Positions 2,615 to 50,610 of a stretch of 64,000 bases of DNA are shown here, piece by piece (position 1 is the first letter of the stretch; each line of letters begins with the position of its first letter). The translations under genes were made by a program, and so were the position numbers. This DNA is from an uncultured Ectothiorhodospiraceae bacterium (GTDB lineage: Bacteria; Pseudomonadota; Gammaproteobacteria; S012-40), in contig CALZJE010000008.1 of NCBI GenBank assembly GCA_945787715.1, forward strand, positions 24,367 to 88,366, read 5' to 3'. A model generated the notes under the pieces. It saw only the letters and a program-made list of their open reading frames with translations. It made no database searches and was not told where the DNA came from.

Positions 2615-2629
2615 CTGCTTACCTATTTT

Positions 2630-3910: not shown

Positions 3911-3925
3911 ATTACAACCCTTCTA

Positions 3926-7893: not shown

Positions 7894-8194
7894 AACGTTC
7901 TATTGATTATACGCCATTATCGATTTCAAATTATGTGCTTCTAATCTCTCATGTCGTATTTTGGTAAAGTCAATGAAAGTGAGAAATATATTTGCATACC
8001 AAAATAAAAAATAAATTTCTGGTGTAAAATGCAATATTCTGGTTGGAAAATTGCGTACATAAATGCCCTGAGTGTTTATGATAGCACTCACATTTTTCGA
8101 ATTAAAAAGATATTATTTTTGTAAATGATGCGTTAAAATTATTACCCTTCCTAATTTAATTTATAGAAGAATTTTGTGATTGTTTCGGTTAGAT

Positions 8195-8638
8195 ATGATT
8201 AATATACACAAAGAAAATTCTCAAGAATTATACGAAGATAATTTCTTGCGTATTCGTACACTATTGCCTGACTTACAAATATTTGAACACGTGACTTTAT
8301 CAAGCGAAGATCACTACGTTCAGCTATGTGTTGATGTGTTAGAGCGTACGCCGTATACAATGCTTCTCAGTTTTTCATCACGTTATGGTGCGCAATATCA
8401 GCATGTGCCGGAAACGAAAATTCAAGTCAGGATGTATTATGATGCGGAGGTGGCTGAAGTGTTAACCGTGCAGGGTCATCGTCATATTAGACCTCATTAT
8501 AAATATCCTAACACAAGGATGTATGTTCCTGATGAGAAAAAACAGGGCAATCATTTACTCACTGAAATGTTGCTTTTCTGTGTTAAGAATAATTATAAAA
8601 AATCCTACCTGGATCAGCCCATCGTTATGAACAATTAA
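8195..8638 (+). CDS. DUF1249 (YqiB-like) protein
   Basis: The motifs LRIRTLLPDL, VRMYYDAEVAEV and YKYPNTRMYVPDEKKQ resemble YqiB family blocks. Start taken at the first ATG (M6 of the track ORF, which begins at a TTG). Confidence 0.5.
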   Translation: MINIHKENSQELYEDNFLRIRTLLPDLQIFEHVTLSSEDHYVQLCVDVLERTPYTMLLSFSSRYGAQYQHVPETKIQVRMYYDAEVAEVLTVQGHRHIRPHYKYPNTRMYVPDEKKQGNHLLTEMLLFCVKNNYKKSYLDQPIVMNN

Positions 8639-15274: not shown

Positions 15275-18112
15275 ATGAAGTGGCAGAATATCGCTCATAA
15301 CATAAAAACAATAAAAATTAGCGCGATTTTCGTCTTGCTACTTTTCCTTTTCTTTTCTTCAAACTCATTCGCATTGGGTATTGGTGGTATTAAATTAAGT
15401 TCTACACTTGATAAACCTCTTGATGCAAATATTGAATTACTTGATGTTAGTTCTGACGAATTGTCAGAAATTGGAGTTAAGCTAGCGCCAAATGCAATTT
15501 ACGAACGAATGGGAATTCAGCGTAGTGCGCTTGTTAATCAGCTTATATTTACCATTCAAGAGCAAGATGACGGCAAACATGTCATCCACATCTCTACTCA
15601 AGGCCCTGTTACTGAACCGTTTCTTAATTTTCTCATTGAAGTTAATTGGCGTAATGGACGTTTGTTGCGTGAATTTACCGTTCTTTTAGATCCCCCCATT
15701 TGGCTAGAAGAACAAGCATCACTAGTTACCGCACCAGAAACTGAATTACCTCCAACCTTTAGTGAGAGAACTCAGATCGAAGAAGAGCCTGAAACTGTGC
15801 CGCCGCTGGTTGAAGTCTCTCCCATTGACGAAATGGAAGAATTTGAGTCCTCTGCACCCAAGAAGACAATTCCTGCAAGCGACGTTGCTCCGGTATCAGA
15901 TAGTGCAGATACTCAGGGTGTCGCAGATTTGTCATCGATGGTGCATACCGTACAAAAAAATGAATATCTGTGGAAAATTGCGAACGAAATGCGACCGCAA
16001 AATATCAGTGTGGATCAGATGATGCTCGCCCTGCAAAGAGCAAATTCGGAAGCGTTTTTTGGGGATACTGTTTCTCAATTGAAGACTGGCGCAATTTTAC
16101 GAATCGATAATGTCGCTTCACTTAATAGTATTAGTGTTTCTGATGCGATTGCTGAAATTGCACGACAAAACCAGAAGTGGTTAGCTTATAAGCGAGATCG
16201 TCAGGCAAGAAATGCAGTATCTGCTGAATCAGCAGAAATTGAAATCACCAATGGTGAGCAAACAAATAGTTCGGTTGAGGAAAGTCTTGTATCAGTACTA
16301 GCGGAAGAAACTTCGTTACTGAAACTTGTGTCTCCCATAAACGAGCAAAGTGATTTAAGTGAAGCCACGCAAACCAATGCCACACAAACCAATGCCACTC
16401 TGGAAGCCGGTGAATCCTCACTTGAAAACTTAAGCGTTGAATTGGCTATGGCATCAGAAGATATGGAAGCTAAACGGCTTGAGAATGAAGATTTAAAAGA
16501 TCGACTATCTTCTCTTCAAGATCAAATGAGTAAAGCGAAAAATCTGATTGAGTTAAAAGATAATGAGCTGAAACAATTTGAGACCGGTGTCGAAGATGAA
16601 GTAATTTCTCAAATTCTACCTTCCGTAGAACTTAATGAACAAACTGATATAGCATCTGAGAATATTCCACCCGTCAAAGCCAATACAGATGAGGTGGATC
16701 AAAAGAAATCGAAAGCTGAATATTGGAAAGATCCTGTCATACTTGGAACTACTGCAGGCGCTGCACTACTATTGCTTCTTACCATTATTGTTGTTAAACG
16801 CAAGCGAAAAGAGAATCAGGTAGAACAAGAACCTGAAGCCATTGATCATGAAGATGCTTCGTTAGAAGAGTTGTTTGCAGAGTCTGAAGGATCCAATAAT
16901 GATACACAGGTTATCAAGTTTAATGATAGTTTTTTGGGAGAAGAAGAATCAGACATTTCACTTGAGCCATTGACTGAACTTAATTTTGATACAAATGAAA
17001 ACGAGCTACTTGAAAGTAGAGAGCCGTTTCTTGATCCGATCGCTGAAGCCGATGTTTATTTAACCTATGAGAAGTATGGCAAAGCTGAATTGTTGTTAAA
17101 TGATGCCATACAATCAGAACCCGACCGCCAGGAGCTAAAACTTAAGTTACTTGAAGTGCACGCGCTTTCTCATAATGTTGGTGCTTTTAATAATGCTGCA
17201 GATATCTTATATGCATCTATTTCAGGTGACGATCAGCATCCTATTTGGCAACAAGCAATTTCACTAGCGATGGATATTGGGTCTGAAAGTCCTCTATTTG
17301 CCAAAAGTGAAGCGAACGTAGCTGAATTAATAGATAAAGAAATACAAAAAGAGAATGTAGATCTTCCCTTTGGAGATGAAGAAATTCTCGCCGGAAAAGA
17401 CAATGATGCACCATCATTTGATGCGAATTCTCCAGGAAAAACTTCTGATATAAAAGAGAATTTCTCGGTTGCTGACAATAGGTTTGACGAATTACTGGAT
17501 AGTGAATTGTTTGAGAGTTTCTCGGCTAACTCTGATGAACTCAAGGCTGCTGAGCTAGAGAAGCTAAATCTCGATTCATCAGAGTCTATTACGGAAGTAC
17601 TGGAATTTACAGATTTTGATGAGATACAAACTGAAAATGAATCCGAAGTTAGCAATATATTATCAGAACGGGAAGACGTTAATGATGTAGAACCAAAAAG
17701 CATACTCTCGATTAATGAATTAGGGCTAGATTATGATGAAGATCTGGAGTTAAAACCAGAAAAGGTGACCGGAAACGGAAATAAAGAGGCTTACAAAATT
17801 GTCGAAAAAAATATTGCTGACATTACAGAAATCGATACATATGAACTCCCTGATGATGAGCAATCAATTACAGTAGACGATGTATTTGATCCGGTAAGCC
17901 ATCCAATTTCTGCCGGATTAACAAATGAAAAAGAGTTTACAGACACATCCTTGTTCTTACTCTCTGATGAAGTAGGGACTAAGCTGGATCTGGCTAAAGC
18001 TTATATGGAGATGGGTGATTATGATGGAGCAAAAGATCTGCTCTCTGAAGTTATGGGAGAAGGAAATAGCAAGCAACAAGCGGAAGCTATGGAGTTACTC
18101 GAAACCACTTAA
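15275..18112 (+). CDS. fimV: FimV-like peptidoglycan-binding membrane protein
   Basis: Conserved FimV N-terminal domain, LysM (VHTVQKNEYLWKIANEM), a central TM helix (ILGTTAGAALLLLLTIIVVKRKRK), a long acidic region, and the FimV C-terminal motif (DLAKAYMEMGDYDGAKDLLSEVMGEG). Position after asd matches Pseudomonas/Legionella synteny. Confidence 0.8.
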   Translation: MKWQNIAHNIKTIKISAIFVLLLFLFFSSNSFALGIGGIKLSSTLDKPLDANIELLDVSSDELSEIGVKLAPNAIYERMGIQRSALVNQLIFTIQEQDDGKHVIHISTQGPVTEPFLNFLIEVNWRNGRLLREFTVLLDPPIWLEEQASLVTAPETELPPTFSERTQIEEEPETVPPLVEVSPIDEMEEFESSAPKKTIPASDVAPVSDSADTQGVADLSSMVHTVQKNEYLWKIANEMRPQNISVDQMMLALQRANSEAFFGDTVSQLKTGAILRIDNVASLNSISVSDAIAEIARQNQKWLAYKRDRQARNAVSAESAEIEITNGEQTNSSVEESLVSVLAEETSLLKLVSPINEQSDLSEATQTNATQTNATLEAGESSLENLSVELAMASEDMEAKRLENEDLKDRLSSLQDQMSKAKNLIELKDNELKQFETGVEDEVISQILPSVELNEQTDIASENIPPVKANTDEVDQKKSKAEYWKDPVILGTTAGAALLLLLTIIVVKRKRKENQVEQEPEAIDHEDASLEELFAESEGSNNDTQVIKFNDSFLGEEESDISLEPLTELNFDTNENELLESREPFLDPIAEADVYLTYEKYGKAELLLNDAIQSEPDRQELKLKLLEVHALSHNVGAFNNAADILYASISGDDQHPIWQQAISLAMDIGSESPLFAKSEANVAELIDKEIQKENVDLPFGDEEILAGKDNDAPSFDANSPGKTSDIKENFSVADNRFDELLDSELFESFSANSDELKAAELEKLNLDSSESITEVLEFTDFDEIQTENESEVSNILSEREDVNDVEPKSILSINELGLDYDEDLELKPEKVTGNGNKEAYKIVEKNIADITEIDTYELPDDEQSITVDDVFDPVSHPISAGLTNEKEFTDTSLFLLSDEVGTKLDLAKAYMEMGDYDGAKDLLSEVMGEGNSKQQAEAMELLETT

Positions 18113-24785: not shown

Positions 24786-25088
24786 TTATTTCGGGTCAAT
24801 ATTGGATGGAGGAATAATTTTTTCGCTTTTCCCATTGAGTTGAAACACGAATGAGAGCACGACGGCAACAGCCTGATAGAGATTGGAGGGAATTTCTTCA
24901 TCAATTTCGATTCGTGAAAGTAATTTAACTAGCTCGCTATCTTGATAGAGCGTAACGCCATGCTCTTCTGCTATCTCAACGATTTTTTCTGCAATAATGC
25001 CGTCACCTTTTGCGACTACCTTGGGCGCGTTTTCAATATTGTATTTTAACGCGACAGCTTGAAGATTTTTTTTATCATCGTCGCTCAT
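24786..25088 (-). CDS. FlhB C-terminal domain-like small protein (EscU/YscU/FlhB-C family paralogue)
   Basis: 100 aa. AVALKYNIENAPKVVAKGDGIIAEKIVEIAEEHGVTLYQDSELVKLL aligns with the FlhB cytoplasmic C-terminal domain. Overlaps the upstream gene by 4 nt. Confidence 0.7.
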   Translation of the reverse strand: MSDDDKKNLQAVALKYNIENAPKVVAKGDGIIAEKIVEIAEEHGVTLYQDSELVKLLSRIEIDEEIPSNLYQAVAVVLSFVFQLNGKSEKIIPPSNIDPK

Positions 25089-26755
25089 GCTTTCAAATCC
25101 ACAAGATTACTAGAGTTAATTGTTTCATGGTTGTGAGAGAGAGGTGGTTTACCTTGGTGGCAAGCGATGTTTTCTGATTTAAATCCTGATTTTTGAAGGT
25201 TTTCTTGTAGCTTGTTAACATTTTGGCGGGTTATTTCATAGGTATCGTCTCTCTCAGCCCATAAAACCACGCCAATGTTTTCGCTAATCAAGGTGATTCG
25301 TGCATGTATAGGGCCGAGTGATTCCAGTTCAATCGCTAAATTTACCGTCACGACGGCATCAGCTTCCTGCTCAGTCGCTTGTTCTTTTTCGTAACGCATT
25401 TGTATGAGATGTATATCTTCACCATCTTGTGCTGGAATTTCCATGCTCCAGGCAAGTTTCCCATTATCTTGTTCTTGTAAGGTGTTGAGTTGATGAAGTT
25501 GAGTGCGGGAAATTGCGGAATCCACAGATTTAACAAGATTGTCAATCATATCTACCAGGCTTGATATGCGAGGTGTAACATTCGATTGTTTTGGATCTGT
25601 TTTAGTCGCAACAAAATCAAGTGCATGTTTAATATTACCGAATTCTTTATTGTAGGTAGGAACTGTTTTGCTAATTTGAGGCGTGTTTGTAATTGGCTGT
25701 TGAAGTAGTGATTGTACTAGTGGTTTTTGAGTAGTTACCTTAGTTAACTCTTTGGGAATTATTTTGTGCTGCTGGCTGATAACTTTTATTGCTTGCTGCG
25801 TTTGTTCAATCTTAATTTGTTGAGCAATGTTTTCAACAGATTTTGTTGTTGCTTGTGTAGTATTTATTGTTTTATTTTCAGAATTAGTTTTTATCTGTAA
25901 CGCCGCTTCTTGTTTTACTTGCTCTGTATTTTTAATAGTGTTGGTTTGTATTACTTGATTATCTAAAGGTGTTTTCGCTTGTGTATTTGAAATACTTGCT
26001 TTAATTAGAGGTTGTTGCGGGGGCAGTTTATTAGTCTGGGGCTGTTGCGTTAAACTGCTCTGAAGTTTTATTGTTTGTTGTGTCGAGCTGTTCTGTAATT
26101 TTGTTTCCTGTTGAATAGGGTTGTTTTGAAGTTTTGTTGTTTGCTGAGTTGTAGACTGTTCTTTACTCAATGCATTTTTAAAATTTATGAGTAACGACTT
26201 CAAATCTTTTTTAATTATCGAAGCTGTGTTATTTGTAATAATGTCCTTTAAGTTTTTTTCCAATAATAAACCTGAATTTTTAATGGCTGATTTGACGCCT
26301 TCAGCCGTTGATAACTGTTTGGTTGTTGGAAGTTGTTTTATAAAGCTCCTTGAAACTTGAACCAATTTTTGCGGTATTTGTAATGGTTTGGCGTGTTTGA
26401 TGACATTCTGGATCTGTTGAATAGCGAAACCAATCGGTTTTTGTTGAGGTAACGTTTGCCGCATCGCTTGCTCGGTCACTAGTGAGCTGATGAGCTTTTC
26501 GGGCAGTTGAAGTGTAATTTGTTTTCCGGTTTGAGCAACAAGGAGTTGCAATATTTGGTCGGTTTTCAGGGGCAGCGTCGTTTTTGCATTCAGTAGTGTG
26601 TTATTGATATTTAAAGTGACTTCGCCAGATGCTGAGTTAAGTGAAATGACTTTAGCGAGTAACTGCTGGCCTACGCTCAGGTTATTGGCAGGCATCTTCC
26701 CTGAAGAGACCGTGAGCGTTTGTAAGGCAGCGATTTGTGTTGGCGTGAGTTCCAT
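25085..26755 (-). CDS. FliK-like hook-length control protein homologue (Gln/Thr-rich and repetitive)
   Basis: 556 aa. Long Q/T-rich low-complexity middle with KLQ-type repeats. The C-terminal block (AWSMEIPAQDGEDIHLIQMRYEKEQ...VNLAIELESLGPIHARITL) resembles the FliK Flg_hook domain. Confidence 0.6.
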   Translation of the reverse strand: MELTPTQIAALQTLTVSSGKMPANNLSVGQQLLAKVISLNSASGEVTLNINNTLLNAKTTLPLKTDQILQLLVAQTGKQITLQLPEKLISSLVTEQAMRQTLPQQKPIGFAIQQIQNVIKHAKPLQIPQKLVQVSRSFIKQLPTTKQLSTAEGVKSAIKNSGLLLEKNLKDIITNNTASIIKKDLKSLLINFKNALSKEQSTTQQTTKLQNNPIQQETKLQNSSTQQTIKLQSSLTQQPQTNKLPPQQPLIKASISNTQAKTPLDNQVIQTNTIKNTEQVKQEAALQIKTNSENKTINTTQATTKSVENIAQQIKIEQTQQAIKVISQQHKIIPKELTKVTTQKPLVQSLLQQPITNTPQISKTVPTYNKEFGNIKHALDFVATKTDPKQSNVTPRISSLVDMIDNLVKSVDSAISRTQLHQLNTLQEQDNGKLAWSMEIPAQDGEDIHLIQMRYEKEQATEQEADAVVTVNLAIELESLGPIHARITLISENIGVVLWAERDDTYEITRQNVNKLQENLQKSGFKSENIACHQGKPPLSHNHETINSSNLVDLKA

Positions 26756-26791: not shown

Positions 26792-26799
26792 TTATCGGC
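26792..26799 (-). promoter_or_regulatory. Candidate sigma-28 (FliA) -10 box GCCGATAA upstream of the FliK-like gene
   Basis: Perfect 8/8 match to the sigma-28 -10 consensus on the minus strand, 36 nt upstream of the ATG at 26755. The -35 match is weak (TTAAACAA versus TAAAGTTT). Confidence 0.4.
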
Positions 26800-26814
26800 C
26801 AATAAAAAAGTTGT

Positions 26815-27411
26815 TTAAACTTCAATTTCTGCAATCAGCGCGCCAAACGAGAAGGTTGTGTAGCGTTCAACTTTGATATTATTTGACCAATAATCAAAAG
26901 GTAAGCCAGCTTTTTCTTTCAAGTGGCGTAAAAAGTTTTTTGTATCCGGTATGCTCTCCCATACACTGGGTAAAAATGTGCCTCTTTGATAATCTTCAGA
27001 CAATATCAAACCATCAGTGCTGGGTCTGATTTTTTGTAGTAAATCATCCTCATTTTTGAATGAGATTGGTTCAGGCTCCGATAATATGGAAATATGAATA
27101 TCGAGATTACTAAATTCAACGCTTGAGAGTTTCGGAAAACGAGGATCGTTAAATGCGGCAGAGTATGCGTTTTCTGCTACATCTTCAGCGAGTGGTCGGG
27201 ATGCTAGTAATCGACCAATACAGCCTCGTAGTTGCTTATTAATCTCTAATGTGACAAAGGTTGCTCGAATGTCTGAAAGTGTGGGTGGATAGTGACTAAG
27301 TTCAATAAATAATGGATTATTATTTTTTAGGCCTGACTCAATGGATTTCGCTGCAATAGATAAAAGCAGAGTCTGTTCTTCCTGTGAATATGGGATATCA
27401 ATAGAAGGCAT
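26815..27411 (-). CDS. AMMECR1 domain protein (AmmeMemoRadiSam system protein A)
   Basis: LRGCIG motif. About 198 aa from the ATG at 27411. The longer track ORF (start 27507) would overlap the MEMO1 gene by 110 nt. Confidence 0.8.
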   Translation of the reverse strand: MPSIDIPYSQEEQTLLLSIAAKSIESGLKNNNPLFIELSHYPPTLSDIRATFVTLEINKQLRGCIGRLLASRPLAEDVAENAYSAAFNDPRFPKLSSVEFSNLDIHISILSEPEPISFKNEDDLLQKIRPSTDGLILSEDYQRGTFLPSVWESIPDTKNFLRHLKEKAGLPFDYWSNNIKVERYTTFSFGALIAEIEV

Positions 27412-28183
27412 ACGCACCGTATCCAACAACTCTGTTTTTATCACCTTCGGTGTCTCCAGAATTTCTAAGATCAAGGGTTTTACAATGCAAATTATGTTTT
27501 TTTGCAAATTTTAAAAGCCCATTAACTGGGTAAGTGCCACATGCCATCTCTCCTGTAATTGTGCCAAACTGGAGTTGCTCTATGGCAGTTGTTGTTTGTT
27601 GGTCAATTTCTTGTGCTGTTTTATAGTCATGAAAATGACTTAAATCAGAGCTGATAACAAAAAAAGTTGCTGGATCATCCCAAAATAAATCTAATACCTC
27701 CTCTACAGCGCTTGAAGTCATATCACCTACGGCTATCGGTACCAGGCTGAACTCATCTAATACAGTTTGTAGAAAAGGGAGGTGGACTTCTAAGCTATGT
27801 TCGTCCTGATGTGCCATATCGCTTAGTTGAACATTAGGATTTTTTAAGAGTGCTTGCACTGCATCCGTATCAATTGCTATATCACCTAAAGGGGTCCGGA
27901 AATAGTCTGCACTACTGACTGCGCAACCATGAACTGCTACGCGATGTGTTGGTCCAAGTAATACGACACGACGAATCTTTTCTCTTAATGGCTCTAATAG
28001 TTTATAAGCACTTGCAGCAATCTCACCTGAATAGATGTACCCAGCATGAGGAACAATTATCGCACGTGGCGTGATATTTCTAGCGGGCGCATTGTTGAGT
28101 ATATCATTCAACAACTCTTGCAAAACTTTTGCATTATTGGGATAAAAAAGCCCGGCAACGGCAGGTTCTCTTATAGTAGGCAT
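27398..28183 (-). CDS. MEMO1 family protein (AmmeMemoRadiSam system protein B)
   Basis: 261 aa. AGLFYP...PHAGYIYSG...LGPTH motifs are typical of MEMO1/extradiol-dioxygenase-like proteins. Confidence 0.8.
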   Translation of the reverse strand: MPTIREPAVAGLFYPNNAKVLQELLNDILNNAPARNITPRAIIVPHAGYIYSGEIAASAYKLLEPLREKIRRVVLLGPTHRVAVHGCAVSSADYFRTPLGDIAIDTDAVQALLKNPNVQLSDMAHQDEHSLEVHLPFLQTVLDEFSLVPIAVGDMTSSAVEEVLDLFWDDPATFFVISSDLSHFHDYKTAQEIDQQTTTAIEQLQFGTITGEMACGTYPVNGLLKFAKKHNLHCKTLDLRNSGDTEGDKNRVVGYGAYAFY

Positions 28184-28243
28184 TGTAATGTTCCCTTTTA
28201 AATACTACATATAAGTATATGGCTAATGTGTAATTTATCAATG

Positions 28244-28251
28244 TTATCGGC
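28244..28251 (-). promoter_or_regulatory. Candidate sigma-28 (FliA) -10 box GCCGATAA upstream of the MEMO1-family gene
   Basis: Perfect 8/8 GCCGATAA on the minus strand, 60 nt upstream of the ATG at 28183. The -35 is weak (GAATTCAT) and overlaps the start of the divergent radical SAM gene. Confidence 0.35.
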
Positions 28252-28262
28252 GAGGTGGTGAG

Positions 28263-29357
28263 ATGAATTCTGAATATCGGGCAACAAAGTATTGGCATAA
28301 GCTTGATGATGGAAGAATACAGTGTGATTTATGTCCGCGATATTGCAAGCTGCACGAAGGCCAGCAGGGATTATGTTTTGTTCGTGCAAACTTTGACGAT
28401 CAAATAGTGAGTACGACTTATGGTCGTTCCAGCGGGTATTGTATTGATCCTATCGAAAAAAAGCCGTTAAATCATTTTTTACCTGGCACACCCGTCCTCT
28501 CATTCGGCACGGCAGGGTGTAATTTAGCGTGTAAATTTTGTCAAAACTGGGATATGAGTAAGTCGCGTGAAATGGATACGCTTGCTGATCAGGCTTCACC
28601 AGAATTAATTGCGCAAGTTGCCGAACAGACCGGCTGCCGAAGTGTTGCGTATACCTACAATGACCCTGTCATATTTTTAGAATATGCTGTTGATACCGCA
28701 ATCGCATGTGCGGAAAAAAATATTAAATCTGTTGCAGTGACTGCGGGTTATATTTGTGAAGAACCCCGCAAAGAATTTTTTAAACACATGGATGCTGCCA
28801 ATATTGACCTAAAGGCGTTTACTGAACGTTTTTACCATAAAATCACTGGTTCACATCTCGGCAATATATTGGATACTTTGCAATATGTAAAACACGAAAC
28901 TAATGTGTGGTTAGAGATAACGAATTTATTAATTCCAGGAGAAAATGATTCCCCCGAAGAGTTGGAAAAAATGACCCAATGGGTTGTCGAAAAACTCGGG
29001 CCTGATGTACCCATGCACTTCACAGCATTTCATCCTGATTGGAAGATGCTAGATTATCCTCCAACCCCCATGAAAACACTCACCCAAGCAAGAGAAATCG
29101 CGATAAAGAACGGTGTTCGATATGTATATACGGGTAATGTTCACGATAAAAAAGGCGAGAGTACATATTGTCACTCATGTGGTGAAAGATTGATTGGTAG
29201 AGACTGGTATGTGTTGAGTGAGTGGAATATGGATAATAATGGCCATTGTCAAAAATGTGGGACTAAATGTAGCGGTGTATTTGAGAATCAAATGGGTACA
29301 TGGGGAGCAAAGCGGCAACCTATCAGATTGGCTGATTTCAGAGAGATTGTAGTTTAA
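28263..29357 (+). CDS. AmmeMemoRadiSam system radical SAM enzyme (PFL-activase-like)
   Basis: CNLACKFC is a CxxxCxxC radical SAM cluster motif. An additional N-terminal Cys cluster (CDLCPRYC) is present. GAGGTGG Shine-Dalgarno before the ATG. Confidence 0.85.
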   Translation: MNSEYRATKYWHKLDDGRIQCDLCPRYCKLHEGQQGLCFVRANFDDQIVSTTYGRSSGYCIDPIEKKPLNHFLPGTPVLSFGTAGCNLACKFCQNWDMSKSREMDTLADQASPELIAQVAEQTGCRSVAYTYNDPVIFLEYAVDTAIACAEKNIKSVAVTAGYICEEPRKEFFKHMDAANIDLKAFTERFYHKITGSHLGNILDTLQYVKHETNVWLEITNLLIPGENDSPEELEKMTQWVVEKLGPDVPMHFTAFHPDWKMLDYPPTPMKTLTQAREIAIKNGVRYVYTGNVHDKKGESTYCHSCGERLIGRDWYVLSEWNMDNNGHCQKCGTKCSGVFENQMGTWGAKRQPIRLADFREIVV

Positions 29358-29578: not shown

Positions 29579-31999
29579 GTGGTGGCAAAACATACGGGAA
29601 TTATCAGTATATCAGTGCTTTTTTTGGCGTTATTGTTGATAAGTTGTGTTCCTCAGGGCGATCTCAAACAAAAAGTCGATATTAACGTTATTGGAGGAAC
29701 TAACCTCGTTACAACGGAAGGCGGTTCTGAAACTTCTTTACTCATTTATCTCTCAACTGCACCGACCTCAGATGTTACATTTCCCTTTGAGAGTGGTGAC
29801 CCAACGGAAATCTTGTTAGGAAGCGACCAGTTACCGGCAGATCAACAAGGTAAAACCGTATTGTTAACATTTACACCAGAAAATTGGTCTAGCACTCAAA
29901 AATTGAAGCTTTATGGGCAGGACGATAAGGAGCTTGATGGCAATCAAGATATTACGGTGATTACTCATCCAGCACTTAGTAGCGATGTTAGGTATGAAGG
30001 ATTAGATCCCGGTGATTATAAAGTAACAAATGAAGATGATGATGAGGCGGGTATTCTTTTTTCAGGTATTACCTTAACAGATATTTCGCTGACAGATCTT
30101 ACTCTTGCCGACCTTGAATTAGGACGGCTTACCTTAGCAGATATTTTCCTGACCGACATTAAACTCACTGATGCCACTCTGACTGACGGTAAACTAACTG
30201 ATCTTGCTCTTACTGACCTGAGTTTGGGAGACCTTGCGTTAGCAGATGGTTCTTTGGGAAAACGTACTTTGGCGCACCTAACGCTGGAAGATATTACTCA
30301 AGCAAACTATGCGCTGTCAGACCTTACATTAACAGAAACTGCCCTGACAAAGTTTGATTTAAAAACGCTCACATTGAAAGACCATGTTCTGAAAGAAATA
30401 GTATTGAAAAACCGAATTCTTATAGATGTCGCAGCATATGACATCGCTTTAAATGACATTGTTATGAAAGATATAGTGTTGACAACGATAGATAATTTGT
30501 CAACTTCCGAGAGTGGTGAAACGACTGTGTTTAATGCCACGTTGAATACAAAACCTAAAGGAAATGTTGAATTTGATCTAATTATTCAATATGCAAGCGA
30601 GGGATTACTATCATTAAGCTCTTCTGTTAGTAGTGCAGTCAATGAATTAACAATGACGTTCACAGAAGCAAACTGGAATGTTCCACAGGCAATAAATGTA
30701 TTTGGTCAAGATGACTTCCGAGTTGATGGTGATCTAAGGCATGCCATAATCACATCACTACTCAGAAGTAGTGACTCTGATTATAATGACGTAGAGCCGT
30801 TGAATGTGACTGTCCAAAATATTGATGATGATATTGCTTCTTATACGGTATGTCCTAGCATGCCAATAGAGATAAGTGAATTTGAAAAAGTCTGTAATGA
30901 TAAATCATCACCTTTAATAATTTCCAATGAGGGCGTGAATACTTTTTATCTTTACCTTGATAGCATGCCTGCTCAATATTTGGAAATACCGATAACATCA
31001 AGTGATACTCAAATTGGTAAACTAAAATTGGCTGGAGATACAGCAGTATCCAAAGGCTCAGTATCTGTTGAATTTCCTCTCTCGGACTGGAATACACCAC
31101 AACCTGTTTCAATAATCAGGCAAGGTGAAGCATCGAATGACAGCGTATCGGAATTTTCTATCATATTTCATCCTGTTTTAACCAAAGACCAAAAATTTCA
31201 GAGAATAGTACAACCTGACCTTGAGGTTATTAATCTTGGAGATGCTCCAGGTGTATTTATTAATCCGATAAAAGATTTGATTACTTCAGAAGATGGTCAA
31301 GACGCTGAGTTCACCATACGTTTAACATCGGAGCCACAGTCTCCGGTTGAATTTTTACTAACTTCTGAAAAACCTGAAGAGGGATTGTTAATCGGTGGCG
31401 ATTCAGCAAATACTGAGGCGGCTGAAATAGAGATAGAATTCACACCTGATAATTGGTCAACGCAACAGCTCATCACTGTTAAAGGCCAGAATGATGACCT
31501 TGAGGATGGCAACCAGACGTATACAATTATTTCTCAAACAGTGACAAGTGACGATAGTGATTTTGGTGGATTAGTCCCGATAAATCCGGAAAATATTATT
31601 GTCACAAATATTGACGATGACAGCCCAGATTTTATATTCACCCCCATCTCATCGCTAGAAACCTCAGATTCTGGGAAAATAGCACAATTTTCATATTCGT
31701 TAACTACCCAACCTGATGCTGATGTTGTTGTAGATGTTTCTGTAAGTGATTCGTCTGAAGGGCAGCTATTGAAAAATTTAAGCAATAAGCATTCTTTTAA
31801 GTTAACAATGATATTTACACCGGTTAATTGGTCAATTCCTCAAGTTGTGTATGTCACTGGTATTGGTGATGATATTCTTGATGGCGATCAGCCCAATAAT
31901 ATTTCTATTGCTGTGAACAATACTTTAACCATGGATACGACCGGGTATGCAGATGTTAAATCAACGATTACAGTGACTAATATAGATGATGATTATTGA
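29579..31999 (+). CDS. Large lipoprotein with pentapeptide repeats and four Calx-beta-like domains
   Basis: Lipobox LLISC. A run of about 45 pentapeptide units (LTDISLTDLTLADLELGRLTLADIFLTDIKLTD...). Four repeated modules end in DGNQ...V(T)N(I)DDD. Confidence 0.6.
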   Translation: MVAKHTGIISISVLFLALLLISCVPQGDLKQKVDINVIGGTNLVTTEGGSETSLLIYLSTAPTSDVTFPFESGDPTEILLGSDQLPADQQGKTVLLTFTPENWSSTQKLKLYGQDDKELDGNQDITVITHPALSSDVRYEGLDPGDYKVTNEDDDEAGILFSGITLTDISLTDLTLADLELGRLTLADIFLTDIKLTDATLTDGKLTDLALTDLSLGDLALADGSLGKRTLAHLTLEDITQANYALSDLTLTETALTKFDLKTLTLKDHVLKEIVLKNRILIDVAAYDIALNDIVMKDIVLTTIDNLSTSESGETTVFNATLNTKPKGNVEFDLIIQYASEGLLSLSSSVSSAVNELTMTFTEANWNVPQAINVFGQDDFRVDGDLRHAIITSLLRSSDSDYNDVEPLNVTVQNIDDDIASYTVCPSMPIEISEFEKVCNDKSSPLIISNEGVNTFYLYLDSMPAQYLEIPITSSDTQIGKLKLAGDTAVSKGSVSVEFPLSDWNTPQPVSIIRQGEASNDSVSEFSIIFHPVLTKDQKFQRIVQPDLEVINLGDAPGVFINPIKDLITSEDGQDAEFTIRLTSEPQSPVEFLLTSEKPEEGLLIGGDSANTEAAEIEIEFTPDNWSTQQLITVKGQNDDLEDGNQTYTIISQTVTSDDSDFGGLVPINPENIIVTNIDDDSPDFIFTPISSLETSDSGKIAQFSYSLTTQPDADVVVDVSVSDSSEGQLLKNLSNKHSFKLTMIFTPVNWSIPQVVYVTGIGDDILDGDQPNNISIAVNNTLTMDTTGYADVKSTITVTNIDDDY

Positions 32000-34143: not shown

Positions 34144-37100
34144 ATGAAACCTGTTGTTTCTCTGTGGTTTTTACTGAGTTTATTTCCACTATTGCTTGGT
34201 GGTTGTAGTGATCTATTGGGATATGGTTCTTCTGGAAAGAAAACTCAAGCTGACATTTCGCTAGATTTTAATGTGAACGAGGCAAAAACGGTTTTTATTC
34301 TCAATGAATTTACACCGCCAGACAATGATTCTAATCCAACATTTGTTTCAAGTCGACTTTATGCTGTAGATCACTCAGATGAAGTTTATCTGGCGCAAGC
34401 AGGCAGTGAGCCCCTTCCTTTAGTATTCACCACAGTGAATCCCGATGCTAACTATCTCTATGCGGCAATCGATTTGAGCCAGCTTAAGAGCAATGGTAGT
34501 GTTTATCGATTAATTGAGAAAAATAATTGTACAGTTTATAAAGTGTCGTTACAGGATAATTCAACTACCTGTGCGTTACAAGGTATTGCAATTGATCAAT
34601 ATGATACTAATCAATGGGAATTGATTGCTTCGAATGTTAAGCCGGTTCAATTTGATGATCACGGTGGTATCTATTTCTTAGGTAGATCTTTCGTTCTGGA
34701 ATGTTTTACAACCCTAAATTCAACCCGTTATAGTAATGGTGATAAAGTATGTGCAGATAATCAGCAAGACATTAAATATGGTGATTATTCCATGATTTAT
34801 CATGTTTCTATAGAAGGTGCTGTAGAAACTATCGCCAAAACGGATGAGACAATCACATCCTTTATTGTTTTCCCAAAAGGGGAGATAGCATATGTTTCGC
34901 TAAACTCCCAAACCGAAACTCTAAATTTAAAAACTAAAAATGGAATAATAGAAGTCAATAAAAAGCTGGGTAGCATTTCGAATTTCTCCATCTTCAACGA
35001 TCAAACAATGTTATGGAATACGACAGAGGTCGTTCATTGGAGTGATTTAGATGTGAGCTTTTCCTCAATTAATACACATCTTGTTCCTGAAGGTGAAGTT
35101 GCCATGGACCACGGACGTGTATATGTGAAAAGTGATGATTTGCTATTTCAACTATTACCACCCCAGGTAAAAGCAAAATCTTCTTTTTTATCGCCAAATA
35201 ATGTACCTGCGCTCGTTTCTCATGGCTATGCCATATATCTCAGAGAATTAGTAGAAAGTGAACTATTGAAACATCATATTGTTCTTTACGATATTGAAAA
35301 AAATAGCGAGACTCTATTGTTGGTCGATAAAAGCTGGCATGTAAATCAGTGGAGTATGGATGGAGGAAGATTAATATTTTCTGCCATAGATCAATTGAAT
35401 AATTCAATTGTTATCGGGGAAGTTTCGATGCTCAATCTGAATAAAACCGGAGACGAAAGTGATTTTCTGAAATCGAGTGTTATCTCTGATATGGGGAAAA
35501 ATCAGTTTTTGGTAGTCGATTTTGAATCGATAGCGAGTGTTGGGGAACCAAAGCTAAATCCAAAGTTACATCCAGAATTAAGTAGTGAAGCTCCTTATAT
35601 CTCTGAAATTCACATGTTGGCTGATAATCGAAATTCTATCAGTATAGATTTTTCACAATCTATGAATCCAACTTCGATTATTGAGAATCTTTCCCTTCAA
35701 GGCTCAACATTGTCAAACATAAACTATCTTCCATTATGGCAGGGGAATACACTTCATCTTATTATCGATACTGATGGTTTTACTAATAATGAGCTCGTGT
35801 TTCAGAATGATGAGTTTAAAGTCGTTAACCAACAACAACTTTTACCGGTCCAAGAACTAATGTTGAGTGTTAACGCTGCAGCACTTGCGGAAAATGGACA
35901 TAGTCTTGGGGGTTATATTGATATTGCCAACTATCCTCTCAATAAAACGTTTACAACAATTTCGGATGGCAAAACATACCTGGCAAATGCCGAGAAATTT
36001 AATCGAGAAATTGGTGATACTCCGTCTTCTTTGGTGGAAGGCGCAGTTTTGGCGCATGCGCCTTGTGTGAGTACTTGCAGCGAAAGTGAATATGATCTTG
36101 GGATTTTAGAAAAAGGAAATATTCGTCATGAGTTTTCTGTTAGTAGTAATAAATTTGAATTGACGCTTTGGAATAAAACAAAATACTCTGCATCTTATAA
36201 TGTTAATGATTCCCATGATCTACAAATTAAGTTTTTAGGCAATAAGATTATTATTTCGATAGGCGAACAAGAGGCAGAACTGGAATTAGCAGAAAACGAT
36301 TCTCGTTATTGGCTAAGTAAATCCAATATATGGCGTCGCTACCGCATCGATATGTATAATGAGAAACTTCAAATTTCTTACTCCATAGATAATAGTAACT
36401 ACACTGTTATTAATGAACTATTGTTAACCAATGTTCCGAATTATTCTACCTCAACCGATGAATATACTTGGCTGTTGAGTTTCTCAGGCGCGATAGATCA
36501 ATGGTCATCTTCTTCATTAACGATCAATAATACATTATTAAATTCTGCTGGTGACCTACTAAGTTTAACTTTCAATACTGATAGTGTTATACCAGGCGAT
36601 ACCGGGGAGGGTGATGAAATAGGATTTGACGATAATATTGCAGGTAGTTATCCCCTCACTGCCGGTCCAGGAAGCCCGGACGATTCTTTTGGGCTTAAAG
36701 GGGGAGTCTATTTTGGTGGTGTCACTGATTGGTTTGGTGATAGTAGTGCAATGACAATTGATGCGAGCGGACGTATTCTACTTGCGGCAAAAGTTATAAA
36801 CACTCAAGCCTTCGATATGGCCGTGTGGCGAATTACTGCAGATGGAGATCTTGATACAATGTTTGGTATTGATGGACTAACCACTCATCATAATGCTGCA
36901 GGTGGCAATAATCATGATGTTGCTGAAGCTGTTGTTGTTGATCCCAATTCAGGAATGATCTATGTAACGGGAGTGAGTTACAATGGTTTCGCTTATGATA
37001 TGACACTCTGGCGATTAACGGATGATGGTAAGTTAGATACTACATTTAATAATCAGGGGTATGTTACCTATACCACCACTGATACAGATAATAGTGGATA

Positions 37101-37896
37101 TGCAATAGCCATTGATTCAAACGGAAGAATAATTATTGCTGGTGAAAGCAGCTCTCGCCCAACGATTTGGGCTTATCTTCCTTCAGGCGACCTTGATACA
37201 TCATTCAATGGTACCGGCGTATTTTCGTATGGCAATACGTCAGGCAGATTGACCAGCGTAATTATTGATAATAACAATATTAGCAATGATAATAATATTA
37301 TTGTTACTGGCAATATGATTATTTCTGTAGGTGATACAGATATGCTGTTATTAAAGGTCTCTCAGCATGGTACTGAGATTTTTGGGAAGTTATATGATGG
37401 GGTGAACAATGGCGTGGAAAACAACGAAGGGAATGCAACCTACGGAGTTTCAGTCCAGTTGGATTACATGCAGAATTATGTCGTATTTGGATACGAATTA
37501 AACCTAACCGGTTATGATCTTGTTATGTGGCGGTTAGATGAGAATGGAATTCCAGATTCTGATTTTGCATCTGGAAGTGCGACTGAAGGTAGAATCCATT
37601 ATGATAGTAGTGACAATGATTTTGCATATTCGATGGCTATTGACAGAGATGGAAAAATTTATTTATTAGCGAGCTCGAGCACTCAGAATACTGGTCTCTA
37701 TGTTATTCGCTATGACATGGACGGTAATTATGATAATACCTTTGATGCTGATGGTGTGCTTTATCGAACGGGTTATAGCGGAAGAATTTTAACTCATATT
37801 GATGATAACAATGAAGAGAAAGTTTATGTAAGCGGGATGCGTGTTCTTGCCGACGGATTTGAAGGTGAGAGAGGTGTCTGGAGGATTAATCCTTAA
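34144..37896 (+). CDS. Giant lipoprotein with a C-terminal delta-60/beta-propeller repeat region
   Basis: Lipobox LLGGC. About 1250 aa. The C-terminal third has repeated WRLxxDGxLDTxF...G motifs typical of delta-60 repeats. Confidence 0.55.
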   Translation: MKPVVSLWFLLSLFPLLLGGCSDLLGYGSSGKKTQADISLDFNVNEAKTVFILNEFTPPDNDSNPTFVSSRLYAVDHSDEVYLAQAGSEPLPLVFTTVNPDANYLYAAIDLSQLKSNGSVYRLIEKNNCTVYKVSLQDNSTTCALQGIAIDQYDTNQWELIASNVKPVQFDDHGGIYFLGRSFVLECFTTLNSTRYSNGDKVCADNQQDIKYGDYSMIYHVSIEGAVETIAKTDETITSFIVFPKGEIAYVSLNSQTETLNLKTKNGIIEVNKKLGSISNFSIFNDQTMLWNTTEVVHWSDLDVSFSSINTHLVPEGEVAMDHGRVYVKSDDLLFQLLPPQVKAKSSFLSPNNVPALVSHGYAIYLRELVESELLKHHIVLYDIEKNSETLLLVDKSWHVNQWSMDGGRLIFSAIDQLNNSIVIGEVSMLNLNKTGDESDFLKSSVISDMGKNQFLVVDFESIASVGEPKLNPKLHPELSSEAPYISEIHMLADNRNSISIDFSQSMNPTSIIENLSLQGSTLSNINYLPLWQGNTLHLIIDTDGFTNNELVFQNDEFKVVNQQQLLPVQELMLSVNAAALAENGHSLGGYIDIANYPLNKTFTTISDGKTYLANAEKFNREIGDTPSSLVEGAVLAHAPCVSTCSESEYDLGILEKGNIRHEFSVSSNKFELTLWNKTKYSASYNVNDSHDLQIKFLGNKIIISIGEQEAELELAENDSRYWLSKSNIWRRYRIDMYNEKLQISYSIDNSNYTVINELLLTNVPNYSTSTDEYTWLLSFSGAIDQWSSSSLTINNTLLNSAGDLLSLTFNTDSVIPGDTGEGDEIGFDDNIAGSYPLTAGPGSPDDSFGLKGGVYFGGVTDWFGDSSAMTIDASGRILLAAKVINTQAFDMAVWRITADGDLDTMFGIDGLTTHHNAAGGNNHDVAEAVVVDPNSGMIYVTGVSYNGFAYDMTLWRLTDDGKLDTTFNNQGYVTYTTTDTDNSGYAIAIDSNGRIIIAGESSSRPTIWAYLPSGDLDTSFNGTGVFSYGNTSGRLTSVIIDNNNISNDNNIIVTGNMIISVGDTDMLLLKVSQHGTEIFGKLYDGVNNGVENNEGNATYGVSVQLDYMQNYVVFGYELNLTGYDLVMWRLDENGIPDSDFASGSATEGRIHYDSSDNDFAYSMAIDRDGKIYLLASSSTQNTGLYVIRYDMDGNYDNTFDADGVLYRTGYSGRILTHIDDNNEEKVYVSGMRVLADGFEGERGVWRINP

Positions 37897-46413: not shown

Positions 46414-46635
46414 TCGTTATTTGTGCAAAAACAAAGCAAATATTGATTGTGTTCATTATATTCAATCCGTAAAATTGAGTTTCTCTGGCGATATTGCCAT
46501 TTCCTTGAATGGATAAATAATATCTCTAAAATCCTGGAGGATTCAGGATGAGAATACTGAAAATATAAGCTGGAATCCCAATTATTCATCTCTAAACGGC
46601 AATGCCCGAAAGCTGTGTATAAAATAAATATTATT

Positions 46636-49600
46636 ATGAAAATCAAAACAATAAACTTGAGTGCCACACTATTCATCGCATTGATTTCGCTGATAAGCTG
46701 TAGCAGCGAAAACAATAAAGTTCCAGCAAAGAACGACAACCCCGCGTTTTCAAGCAAAAAAAATAACTTTATTCCTGCTGGAATTTCTGTAACAACAAAG
46801 AATGGTGTGGCAGAACTTTCTTGGCCAGAGTTTCCGGATGCAACGGCTTATCAATTATATTGGTCTACCTCTGCTGTAACTGATATTAAAACAGCGGAAA
46901 AAGTTAAACTTAGCTCACCGTTTTATCGTCATGAAAATATTATAAATGATGTTAATTACTATTATACCTATTCCGTAGTGATAAATGGCGTTGAAAGTTT
47001 ATACTCAAATGAAGTTACAATAACAGCGCTTTCTCCTCCAGTGGATGCTCCTACAGACGTGAAAATTATTCCTGGTGATGAGCGATTAACATTAATTTGG
47101 ACAGCGTCTAATAATAGTAATCTACCCAAAACAGATTTACTTTATCATGTGTATTGGAATACATCGGGTAATGTCACAAAAGATGATGAAAAATTAGTAG
47201 CTTCTGCGTCACCTGCTGTGCATCTTGGGCTTAACAATGGGGTGCAATATTACTATCGAATAGCCGCCGTTATCGATAGCCTCGAAGGAGGGTTGTCCAA
47301 TGAAGTTTCTTCTGCTCCACATACCCCGACGCTATTCGCACCTCTCAACGTTGTTGTTACAGCGGGTGTAAGTGAAAATCTGCTTGAGTGGCAAGCCGTC
47401 GAATTTGCAGACTCTTATTCGGTATATTGGAATACTTCAGGTGAAGTAGGATTGTCTGATCAGTTCTTTGAAGTATCAGAGCCAGTATTTACCCAAAAAA
47501 ACTTACGTAATGGTAATACATATTTTTATCGAGTAATGGCCCATAACTCATCTTTCAATAGTTCATTTTCAAGAGAAGTATCAGCCAGGCCAGCGACAGC
47601 GTTACCAGGCACCCCGCAAAGAATTTCCGTGGTTGCTGGCGTAGAGAAAGCTACAATAAATTGGAGTGCGGTGGAGAACGCCATACTTTATAACTTATAT
47701 TGGTATACCAATGGCGCCGTGACCAACGTTAATCCCAATGTGATCTCGCCTTTTAATCATAATAATTTGTCCTCGGATTTGGAAGTCAATTATCGAATAT
47801 CAGCCGTTGTAAATGGTGTTGAAGGTTTACCCTCCGCGCAAGTAACGGTTAAACCATTGCCACAGCCTGCTGCCGCACCTGCTGGAGTTGTTATTACCAA
47901 TTCTCAATCTCAAGGCGTTTTACTTACTTGGGAGCCGGATGAATCAGCAATTGCATATAACCTATATTGGAATACTACAGGAGACGTTACTACTGAAGAT
48001 GAAGTGATAAAAAATGTAACATCTCCTTACGCACATGTTGACGCAGAAAATGGCAAAACATATTTCTACATGATAACTTCCGTCAATAATGAAGGTGAAA
48101 GTTTGCCATCTAATGTCATTAAAGTAACCTTGGCGCCGAATGCCCCAAATGATATTAGGGCAGAAATAAATGAGAACGCTATCGGGCTTCAATGGGATGA
48201 GGTTAGTGGAGCAAAAAATTATCATCTTTATTGGTCGACGTCACCAGATATTGCCATTAAAGAACGTAATCATATTCCTACGGTCAACCCTGGATTTACC
48301 CATATTGACCTTGCTTATGGTCAAAAGTATTACTACATCATCACATCTGAAAACGAAGCGGGAGAGAGTGTAGGTTCCCAAGAGCTTGTTGTTAAGACTG
48401 ATGAAAAAACAATAATACCAGTAGCAGCGCCGACAGATATATCTGTATCTGTAGTGGCTAATGACATAGTGCTGAATTGGTCTGAAGTTCTCTATGCTAC
48501 ATCATATAAAATGTATCTCTCACCAAGTCCTATTATTTCCATTGATGGCTTGGATGGTATTCCAATAGAAGCTACTGAATATGTTCATCAATCGCCTGTT
48601 GTTAATCAACAATATTATTATCGCATTAGTAGTATCGGTTCTTCAGGAGATAGTACTGTTTCGGAGCAAGTGACAGCAGTTATCGAAGATAAATTAATAT
48701 CTGATGCATTGAAATTGATACCTGATCAAACATTCCGAAATTGCATTAGTTCAATGGCTTCTGAACATCAATGGATCAATGCCAGTGAAGTTTCATATTT
48801 GGAATGCAGCTCTGGTGAAGGTGGCTTTATTCAAAGTCTTGATGGTATTCATCAATTCCTATTCGTGACGGAGTTTACCTTTTTTGGGGGCAAAATACAA
48901 AATCTCGATGCTTTTTCGGGACTTTCATTTCCTGCATTAACACGTATCCAATTGGTGAATAATGGCATTGAGAATATTACTGGTCTTGGGGAGATAATAG
49001 CCCCTAATCTTTCTTATTTAATATTAGATCAAAATAAAATATCAGACTTGAATCCACTTTCTTCACTATCAAGTTTAATTGAACTATCTGTGTCTCAAAA
49101 CCAGGTGGTTGATGTCTCTCCAGCATCAAATTTAACAGCGCTTCGGAAGTTGGATTTCCATGCTAATAAGATAGGCGGAGTTAATATAGGCAATCTAAAT
49201 TCTTTGCTTCCATTAACATCGAGCGATACGTTTGAATATTTTAATGTCGATCAGAATATAGGTGTTGATTGTGCGGAATTAGAAATGGTACTTCATTCTC
49301 TTGGTGGCATAAAGATACCTGATTCTCCAATAAACGATATTAACTGTTCGGTAACTGAGAGCTCTCTACCGTTATCGCCAAAAAACATAGTCGCTAGAGC
49401 TGGAGCTGATTTTGTTCAGTTTCTTTGGGATGAATCATTAGGAGCAACTTCCTACACTGTATATTGGTCAAATGAATTCATTGGTTCTAGTTCTGGTTCT
49501 GGTGCTGAGGTGTTTGAGTTTCCTGAAGTTACACATGATTTTGTTCATCAACAACTGCAGAGTGGTTTGCCTCACTATTATCAAATATCAGCGAGTAATG

Positions 49601-50610
49601 CGAATGGTGAAAGTATCCAAACAAGTGAAATTTCTCTGACACCACTGCCTGTGTTGTTATCAGAAATGACAGTGCCAGATCCTGGCTTTCAAGAATGTGT
49701 CAACGATATTATCGATACAGGACCGTGGGTATATGCGCATGAAGTGGAAGTATTAAATTGCAGCCTTAGCAGTAATACATCGATTAATGATCTAACCGGA
49801 ATTCATCTTTTTTCAGGTGTTAGAAGTATCGATTTATCAGGGAAGGGTTTAGAGACTCTGGATGGATTTGACTTTTCTTACTTTCCTGACCTTGTTTCAT
49901 TGAATTTATATGGTAACAGTATTTATAGCGCTGAAGCACTTTCAACATCTATTGTGCCGCAGTTAAAGGATCTCGATATAAGTTCAAATAATCAACTACT
50001 AAGTGTAAAGCCACTAAATAGCCTGACTTCATTAACGTCGCTTAAACTAGTTTGGAATAGCTTAGTTGATTTACGAGAAATACCAGACTTGGTGAATCTT
50101 GAAGACCTCGATATATCTTCAATGTCATTTTTTAGTGGAATTAGTTTAAATATCGATGTGCTGAGTAACTATTCAAAATTGGTGGAATTGGATATGTCAT
50201 TTAATGTCATTACTGATTATTCAAGCTTGTCTGATTTAACCAACTTAGAACGATTGCTTCTTATAAATAATAAAATAGATGATATAAGTTTTATCACAAT
50301 ACCTTCATCGGTTCTTGAACTGAATTTATCTAATAATGAAATTAGTGATGTTACGCCATTATCAGGAATGACTCAGTTACAGTTTCTCAATCTTAATCGG
50401 AATGTTATTGGCAATACACCGGAAGAGAATATTATCAAATTAAACGCACTAACTTCTGCGTCTGAAATCTCCTTGATTGGGAATAGAAGTATGGAATGTA
50501 ATGAGCTTATACAATTAATATCGGATTTAGAAGTTGGTGTAGTAAAATTTAGTGATGGAAGTAGAGTTGTACCTGAACAAAACCTAGATTGCACTATTTA
50601 TAATCCCTAA
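46636..50610 (+). CDS. Giant lipoprotein: about 9 FN3-like repeats followed by internalin-type leucine-rich repeats
   Basis: Lipobox LISCS. Start taken at the ATG at 46636. Repeating modules of about 95 aa have a YxLYWxTS core. C-terminal half has 22-aa LRRs (LSYLILDQNKISDLNPLSSLSSLIELSVSQNQVVDVSP...). Confidence 0.65.
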   Translation: MKIKTINLSATLFIALISLISCSSENNKVPAKNDNPAFSSKKNNFIPAGISVTTKNGVAELSWPEFPDATAYQLYWSTSAVTDIKTAEKVKLSSPFYRHENIINDVNYYYTYSVVINGVESLYSNEVTITALSPPVDAPTDVKIIPGDERLTLIWTASNNSNLPKTDLLYHVYWNTSGNVTKDDEKLVASASPAVHLGLNNGVQYYYRIAAVIDSLEGGLSNEVSSAPHTPTLFAPLNVVVTAGVSENLLEWQAVEFADSYSVYWNTSGEVGLSDQFFEVSEPVFTQKNLRNGNTYFYRVMAHNSSFNSSFSREVSARPATALPGTPQRISVVAGVEKATINWSAVENAILYNLYWYTNGAVTNVNPNVISPFNHNNLSSDLEVNYRISAVVNGVEGLPSAQVTVKPLPQPAAAPAGVVITNSQSQGVLLTWEPDESAIAYNLYWNTTGDVTTEDEVIKNVTSPYAHVDAENGKTYFYMITSVNNEGESLPSNVIKVTLAPNAPNDIRAEINENAIGLQWDEVSGAKNYHLYWSTSPDIAIKERNHIPTVNPGFTHIDLAYGQKYYYIITSENEAGESVGSQELVVKTDEKTIIPVAAPTDISVSVVANDIVLNWSEVLYATSYKMYLSPSPIISIDGLDGIPIEATEYVHQSPVVNQQYYYRISSIGSSGDSTVSEQVTAVIEDKLISDALKLIPDQTFRNCISSMASEHQWINASEVSYLECSSGEGGFIQSLDGIHQFLFVTEFTFFGGKIQNLDAFSGLSFPALTRIQLVNNGIENITGLGEIIAPNLSYLILDQNKISDLNPLSSLSSLIELSVSQNQVVDVSPASNLTALRKLDFHANKIGGVNIGNLNSLLPLTSSDTFEYFNVDQNIGVDCAELEMVLHSLGGIKIPDSPINDINCSVTESSLPLSPKNIVARAGADFVQFLWDESLGATSYTVYWSNEFIGSSSGSGAEVFEFPEVTHDFVHQQLQSGLPHYYQISASNANGESIQTSEISLTPLPVLLSEMTVPDPGFQECVNDIIDTGPWVYAHEVEVLNCSLSSNTSINDLTGIHLFSGVRSIDLSGKGLETLDGFDFSYFPDLVSLNLYGNSIYSAEALSTSIVPQLKDLDISSNNQLLSVKPLNSLTSLTSLKLVWNSLVDLREIPDLVNLEDLDISSMSFFSGISLNIDVLSNYSKLVELDMSFNVITDYSSLSDLTNLERLLLINNKIDDISFITIPSSVLELNLSNNEISDVTPLSGMTQLQFLNLNRNVIGNTPEENIIKLNALTSASEISLIGNRSMECNELIQLISDLEVGVVKFSDGSRVVPEQNLDCTIYNP

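Follow-up and report, generated by a model that had tools for sequence, protein, structure and literature searches.

The stretch analysed here is a 64,000-nt segment of contig CALZJE010000008.1 from an uncultured Ectothiorhodospiraceae bacterium (hereafter the window, to which all positions refer; G+C content 38.8%). It carries an AmmeMemoRadiSam system, recognized by the joint presence of TIGR04335, TIGR04336 and TIGR04337, each over its cutoff, followed by genes for a FliK-like and an FlhB-like protein. The element in question, designated box 2, is an exact copy of the -10 octamer of sigma-28 (FliA) promoters in the 79-nt spacer (28184-28262) between the MEMO gene and the divergent radical SAM gene; a related element, box 1, precedes the FliK-like gene. 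We infer the sigma factors used and the transcription start positions from sequences, scores and conservation, and on these grounds we lean, with some reserve, towards the view that MEMO-AMMECR1 is transcribed mainly from a sigma-70 promoter and that box 2 is fortuitous or at best a marginal FliA site. The genes concerned are as follows.

28263-29357, plus strand: AmmeMemoRadiSam radical SAM enzyme, divergent from MEMO (TIGR04337, 664 bits)
27398-28183, minus strand: AmmeMemoRadiSam protein B, MEMO1 family (TIGR04336, 277 bits; PF01875)
26815-27411, minus strand: AmmeMemoRadiSam protein A, AMMECR1, 198 amino acids (aa) from its likely ATG at 27411 (TIGR04335, 200 bits)
25085-26755, minus strand: FliK-like protein of the fliK2 type, 556 aa, with a C-terminal Flg_hook domain (PF02120, residues 458-538)
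24786-25088, minus strand: FlhB C-terminal-domain homologue of the flhX type, 100 aa (TIGR00789, PF01312)
7165-7893, plus strand: fliA, sigma-28 factor (NF005413, 303 bits against a cutoff of 201; TIGR02479, 264 bits)

On the minus strand, MEMO and AMMECR1 are followed by a 59-nt gap, the FliK-like gene, the FlhB-like gene and an amidase gene, in that order, and the end of the fliK2-like gene overlaps the start of the flhX-like gene by 4 nt. The AMMECR1 start at 27411 agrees with the gene calls of 197-208 aa in the related loci L162-L170. A protein identical to the MEMO protein of the window is on record in assembly GCA_945787255.1, from an uncultured gammaproteobacterium. The window encodes its own cognate sigma factor, the product of which aligned with Pseudomonas aeruginosa FliA (PDB 9wsf/9wsm) at 275 bits and retains the Ser and Gln corresponding to S224 and Q228, the residues by which P. 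aeruginosa FliA reads the -35 element (PMC12784957). Besides fliA and the fliK2-like and flhX-like genes, no flagellar genes were found in the window. The elements located in the two intergenic regions and around the radical SAM start are given below.

28244-28251, minus strand: box 2, exact sigma-28 -10 octamer GCCGATAA, from the sequence and a pattern search
28263-28270, minus strand: slot for the -35 octamer of box 2 at the consensus 11-nt spacing, reading GAATTCAT (ATGAATTC on the plus strand)
28252-28258, plus strand: Shine-Dalgarno sequence GAGGTGG of the radical SAM gene, as read from the sequence, abutting box 2
28214-28241, minus strand: predicted sigma-70-type promoter of the MEMO-AMMECR1 operon, from a promoter scan, with -35 TTGATA (28241-28236), a 16-nt spacer and -10 TATACT (28219-28214)
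26792-26817, minus strand: box 1, putative sigma-28 promoter of the FliK-like/FlhB-like pair, TAAA (26817-26814)-N14-GCCGATAA (26799-26792), 19.7 bits, with a conserved core

Inspection of the plus strand, which reads AATGTTATCGGCGAGGTGGTGAGATG at 28240-28265 and TTATCGGC at 28244-28251, bore out the first-pass annotation in that a second exact sigma-28 -10 octamer is present on the minus strand, with exactly 60 nt (28184-28243) between it and the MEMO ATG (28183). All eight positions agreed with the consensus at 28251-28244, the CGA core included, and the octamer is followed by the preferred C. In a weight matrix for FliA derived from 50 E. coli motifs obtained by chromatin immunoprecipitation sequencing (PMC4183435, Table 2), the -10 part scored 15.3 bits. 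The same annotation had box 2 overlapping the radical SAM start; the octamer itself stops 11 nt short of that ATG (28263), and it is the would-be -35 element that coincides with the start codon. In sigma-28 class 3/IV promoters, such as those of E. coli (PMC2859248) and P. aeruginosa fliC (PMC12784957), the consensus is TAAAGTTT-N11-GCCGATAA. The slot GAATTCAT is the reverse complement of the radical SAM start ATG-AAT-TC, and the sequences available at spacings of 10-12 nt, GAATTCAT, AGAATTCA and AATTCATC, matched TAAAGTTT at 3, 3 and 2 of 8 positions, respectively. Over spacings of 14-16 nt, TAAA was matched at no more than 2 of 4 positions, and the -35 part scored -4.0 bits. Since the radical SAM start codon occupies the -35 position of box 2, the sequence there is fixed.

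The full-motif score of box 2 was 11.3 bits, which ranked sixth in the window, where 8 sites in 64 kb reached at least 11 bits; it is indistinguishable from the window background. Box 1 gave the top score of the window, the next site having 11.95 bits, and none of the remaining high-scoring sites lies upstream of a gene that it faces, most being inside open reading frames (ORFs). The exact octamer GCCGATAA occurred three times in the window against 1.88 expected, a count reached or exceeded in 27 of 100 shuffles and therefore not significant, and an exact -10 octamer is by itself weak evidence for regulon membership. The third copy (53639-53646, minus strand) is situated within the ORF of a 379-aa pfkB-family kinase (53337-54476), has no -35 element and is most simply regarded as a chance match.

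To obtain close relatives of the locus, a search was made with the fast-evolving FliK-like protein and the contigs were then retrieved. FliK-like homologues were found at 81, 80, 65, 52, 46 and ~45% identity, and all of these contigs keep the order rSAM<>MEMO-AMMECR1-FliK-like-FlhB-like (rSAM, radical SAM gene; <>, divergent), with the amidase gene next in every contig of sufficient length, either directly or past two inserted genes. At 4-fold-degenerate sites the identity with the window was ~0.65 for L162 and L163 and 0.26-0.40 for L164, L168 and L170, so these sites are saturated in the latter three. Box 2 was exact in L162 and L163 only, where the 79-nt spacer is ~94% identical to that of the window. 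Across these three genomes 72 of the 79 spacer positions are invariant, which argues that the spacer is constrained as a whole and that box 2 is not singled out; the octamer is held within a single invariant 26-nt block, CCACCTCGCCGATAACATTGATAAAT. It is removed by a 7-nt gap in L164/L165, and its position reads TCCGTTAC in L168 and GCCAAAAC in L170, the essential CGA being broken in both. The orthologous position in L164/L165, L168 and L170/L171 is thus without an intact box 2, with the gene order kept, and on the sense strand before MEMO no sigma-28 score in these loci exceeded 2.5, 1.1 and -0.9 bits, respectively. It was also noticed that a weaker sigma-28 -10-like sequence, CCCGATATT, is present 21 nt upstream of box 2 (28272-28280, minus strand), within the part coding for the radical SAM enzyme; it is not conserved, L162 and L163 having CCTTATATT in its place.

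A different picture was obtained for the sigma-70-type promoter in the same spacer. TTGATA-N16-TATACT matches the consensus at 10 of 12 positions, with a spacing inside the 16-18 nt range, and its -35 hexamer is located 3 nt downstream of box 2. Neither TTGATAA nor CATATACT varies among the window, L162, L163, L164, L168 and L170, and the 16-nt length of the spacer between them is fixed while its sequence has diverged. Constant hexamers around a diverged spacer are the usual cross-species footprint of a working sigma-70 promoter, and they suggest that this promoter, not box 2, is the element that selection has kept. In its conserved hexamers, fixed spacer length and diverged spacer sequence, the region at 28214-28241 resembles other compact divergent sigma-70 promoter regions, in comparison with which that of the window has nothing unusual. 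For the radical SAM gene, no sigma-70 promoter with at least 9 of 12 matches was found on the plus strand of the 79-nt spacer; because none there is convincing, that gene may be read from a promoter within the MEMO coding sequence. The possibility that GATAA-N4-GATAA forms a Fur-box-like or direct-repeat operator was rejected: by eye the sequence agrees with the Fur consensus at 11 of 19 positions, no repeat was detected, and only the second GATAA is conserved, being part of the sigma-70 -35 hexamer.

Scans with the radical SAM protein (one genome per species) and with the MEMO protein (metagenomes) yielded 160 further loci, all distant, with radical SAM proteins at most 80% and MEMO proteins at most 59% identical to those of the window. 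Their spacers could not be aligned with that of the window and were used for enrichment statistics only. The exact octamer was present on the MEMO strand upstream of MEMO in none of 123 distant loci. Among 124 such loci, sigma-28-like sites of at least 11 bits upstream of MEMO numbered three on the sense versus two on the antisense strand, and none reached 13 bits. This lack of sense-strand enrichment indicates that AmmeMemoRadiSam is not, as a rule, controlled by FliA. Of the 110 related loci in which both MEMO and radical SAM genes were seen, 90 had the divergent rSAM<>MEMO-AMMECR1 layout. Of 64 distant loci, 7 have an flhX-like gene on the AMMECR1 strand, 2.4-2.7 kb downstream of AMMECR1, and in all six of these seven with readable intervening ORFs a divergent GYF/pentapeptide-repeat gene stands between AMMECR1 and the flhX-like gene.

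Box 1 sits in the 59-nt gap between AMMECR1 and the FliK-like gene, its TAAA overlapping the AMMECR1 stop codon. Five aligned syntenic loci, representing four lineages, share an unchanged CCGATA core between diverged flanks, and L164/L165 have a 12-nt insertion. L167, L168 and L170 each still possess a sigma-28-like -10 element upstream of the FliK-like gene, the copy in L170 being outside the aligned column. The scores of the fliK2 promoters were 19.7 (window), 15.2 (L162), 15.1 (L163), 14.6 (L167), 15.0 (L168), 14.9 (L170) and 4.4-6.0 bits (L164), so that six of the seven lineages have a sigma-28 site of at least 14.6 bits ahead of the FliK-like gene. Recovery of box 1 across lineages indicates that the method detects a real sigma-28 promoter in this clade, and no conserved one was found upstream of MEMO. 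Judged from its sequence and conservation, box 1 looks like a real sigma-28 promoter.

The arrangement, a protein with a FliK C-terminal (Flg_hook) domain followed by a small FlhB C-terminal homologue and preceded by a conserved sigma-28 match, is that of fliK2-flhX. In P. putida this pair has a conserved match to the FliA consensus, and its promoter is FliA-dependent and stimulated by ectopic FliA (bioRxiv 10.1101/2021.08.29.457346). The likeness to P. putida KT2440 (flhX = PP_4329; bioRxiv 10.1101/2021.08.29.457346), in gene pair and in the preceding sigma-28 match, concerns box 1, not box 2. The pair lies within the flagellar cluster in P. putida and most other Pseudomonas, whereas here it is directly downstream of AmmeMemoRadiSam and 17 kb from an isolated fliA. 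Box 1 belongs to the known fliK2-flhX promoter type already described in Pseudomonas, neither box is a new kind of element, and of the whole locus only the FliK-like/FlhB-like pair can be placed in the flagellar regulon with some confidence. In the distant locus L064, TAAA-N15-GCCGATAT was found upstream of a fliK2-like gene (18.8 bits), and at 2440-2520 on the minus strand of that locus the sigma-28 -10 element occurs in two tandem copies of GCCGATATACTG before the gene (18.8 and 15.3 bits). Locus L080 has at about 2510-2520, on its plus strand, a 16.5-bit sigma-28-like sequence, TCAGGCAT-N11-GCCGATAAT, which faces the divergent GYF/pentapeptide-repeat gene, away from fliK2.

Compared with known sigma-28 class 3/IV promoters, box 2 is alike in having the full -10/extended -10 octamer with its CGA core on the sense strand of a FliA-encoding genome; it is unlike them in having no -35 element, in being conserved only in very close relatives and in preceding non-flagellar genes. 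The importance of the -35 element is known from the E. coli aer promoter, in which single -35 point mutations bring expression near the FliA-independent level (PMC2859248). The closest counterparts of box 2 are those E. coli FliA sites in which an exact -10 is combined with a poor -35, namely GCCGATAAC with at most 2 of 4 matches to TAAA (Fitzgerald et al. 2014, PMC4183435). Our base rate for -10-only sites is an estimate.

These sites bear on whether box 2 could be a young, lineage-specific -10-only sigma-28 promoter, with a start near 28237, in tandem with the sigma-70 promoter; FliA would then boost MEMO-AMMECR1 late in flagellar assembly in the window, L162 and L163, and fliK2-flhX through read-through. 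We regard this as doubtful but deserving serious attention, for a number of observations favour it and weigh against a fortuitous origin of the octamer. Among the E. coli FliA-bound sites with an exact GCCGATAA, the -35 is poor in 7 of 15, and three of the seven, at fliAZY, ves and ykfB, drive FliA-dependent expression (PMC4183435). The other four, intragenic in ydcU, mutY, yqjA and rmuC, show low occupancy (fold-above-threshold 1-3), and deletion of fliA caused no expression change of their host genes (PMC4183435). The -35 elements of the clade's own conserved fliK2 promoters are weak and variable (TAAC, TAGT, TGAG, TGGA), so a -10-only site might suffice here. P. putida has operons that receive both sigma-70/54 and FliA input (bioRxiv 10.1101/2021.08.29.457346), fliA is encoded in the same window, and box 2 is directly upstream of, and on the same strand as, an operon that is probably FliA-dependent. 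Besides the exact match at all eight positions with its following C and its 15.3-bit score, the chance of an exact octamer in the AT-rich, correctly oriented 79-nt spacer alone is ~7e-4. Octamers in non-coding stretches upstream of and oriented toward a gene numbered 2 against 0.04 expected (P(>=2) = 8e-4, P(>=1) = 0.04; 38 regions, 4267 positions), in a test that was picked post hoc. The octamer is also invariant in three genomes that have diverged by ~35% at 4-fold sites; however, so are 72 of the 79 spacer positions, and this conservation is not specific to box 2. Against a young FliA promoter stand its absence from L164/L165, L168 and L170/L171, in each of which box 1 and the sigma-70 hexamers are retained, the lack of any sigma-28 signal upstream of MEMO in the 124 distant loci, a full-motif score at background level, a -35 position fixed by the radical SAM start codon, and a partner gene, that for the radical SAM enzyme, without such a box.

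The high conservation of the spacer in the closest genomes (~94% versus ~65% at 4-fold sites) would accord with the octamer being kept for a reason other than sigma-28, as part of the 5' leader or promoter of the radical SAM gene or as an operator of the divergent pair. The octamer lies directly 5' of the radical SAM Shine-Dalgarno sequence within the invariant 26-nt block, and the spacer must house the promoter and leader of that gene, for which no good plus-strand sigma-70 match was seen. The block is not kept in L164, L168 and L170, though, no inverted or direct repeat surrounds box 2, no Rfam match at E <= 1 was obtained in or near the spacer, and no candidate regulator was found, so that we consider such a role unlikely. 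What inclines us to take box 2 as fortuitous or marginal is that it has no -35 element and is restricted to one shallow sub-lineage. The earlier proposal that the whole AmmeMemo/FliK-like block belongs to the FliA regulon can be retained for fliK2-flhX, given the top score of box 1, its presence in six of seven lineages and the P. putida precedent. Membership of MEMO-AMMECR1 is on balance unlikely, with no -35, an unconserved box 2 and a conserved sigma-70 promoter, and the radical SAM gene has no sigma-28 box on its own strand.

If MEMO-AMMECR1 is mainly under sigma-70 control, the region at 28184-28262 would serve the radical SAM gene on one side and the MEMO-AMMECR1 operon on the other as a compact divergent control region, in which sigma-70 holoenzyme would start transcription near the predicted position 28207, giving a leader of ~24 nt. 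The sigma-28 holoenzyme would start fliK2-flhX from box 1, near 26785. Sigma-70 read-through past AMMECR1 probably adds to fliK2-flhX transcription; it is expected because no terminator-like site was found between AMMECR1 and fliK2.

In the remainder of the window, fliA stands apart from other flagellar genes; the genes on either side of it are hpf-like (6451-6900) and DUF1249 (8180-8638). A weak sigma-28-like sequence upstream of fliA (7104-7131), TAAAGTTA-N12-GTCGAAAT, is below the top 25 matrix matches and could reflect autoregulation. The window further encodes a FimV homologue, a PrkA-DUF444-SpoVR operon and a number of surface or secreted proteins of very large size, namely a lipoprotein-like repeat protein of 806 aa, a protein of 1250 aa, an LRR+fn3 protein of 1331 aa and an autotransporter (1112-5848, minus strand; 15275-18112; 29579-31999; 34144-37896; 46615-50610; 50684-52315). 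Together with the low G+C content, these features suggest a surface- or host-associated lifestyle.

AmmeMemoRadiSam is a widespread system whose conservation extends from archaea to humans (AMMECR1, MEMO1), and to our knowledge its biochemical role is not known. From one octamer and the conserved gene order it might be proposed that in this gammaproteobacterial lineage the system has been recruited into the late flagellar (FliA) regulon via a -10-only sigma-28 promoter and is functionally coupled to FliK2/FlhX, for instance in that it modifies or matures some component of the flagellar export-switch machinery; we consider this quite improbable. If box 2 worked, it would provide the first regulatory context for AmmeMemoRadiSam, and a link to late flagellar assembly would offer a lead that can be tested. 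The order rSAM<>MEMO-AMMECR1-fliK2-flhX has persisted in lineages with saturated synonymous sites, and 7 of 64 distant loci show it with a single gene inserted. This recurrent linkage, which places a system of unknown function beside homologues of the flagellar export switch, is the sole lead worth keeping.

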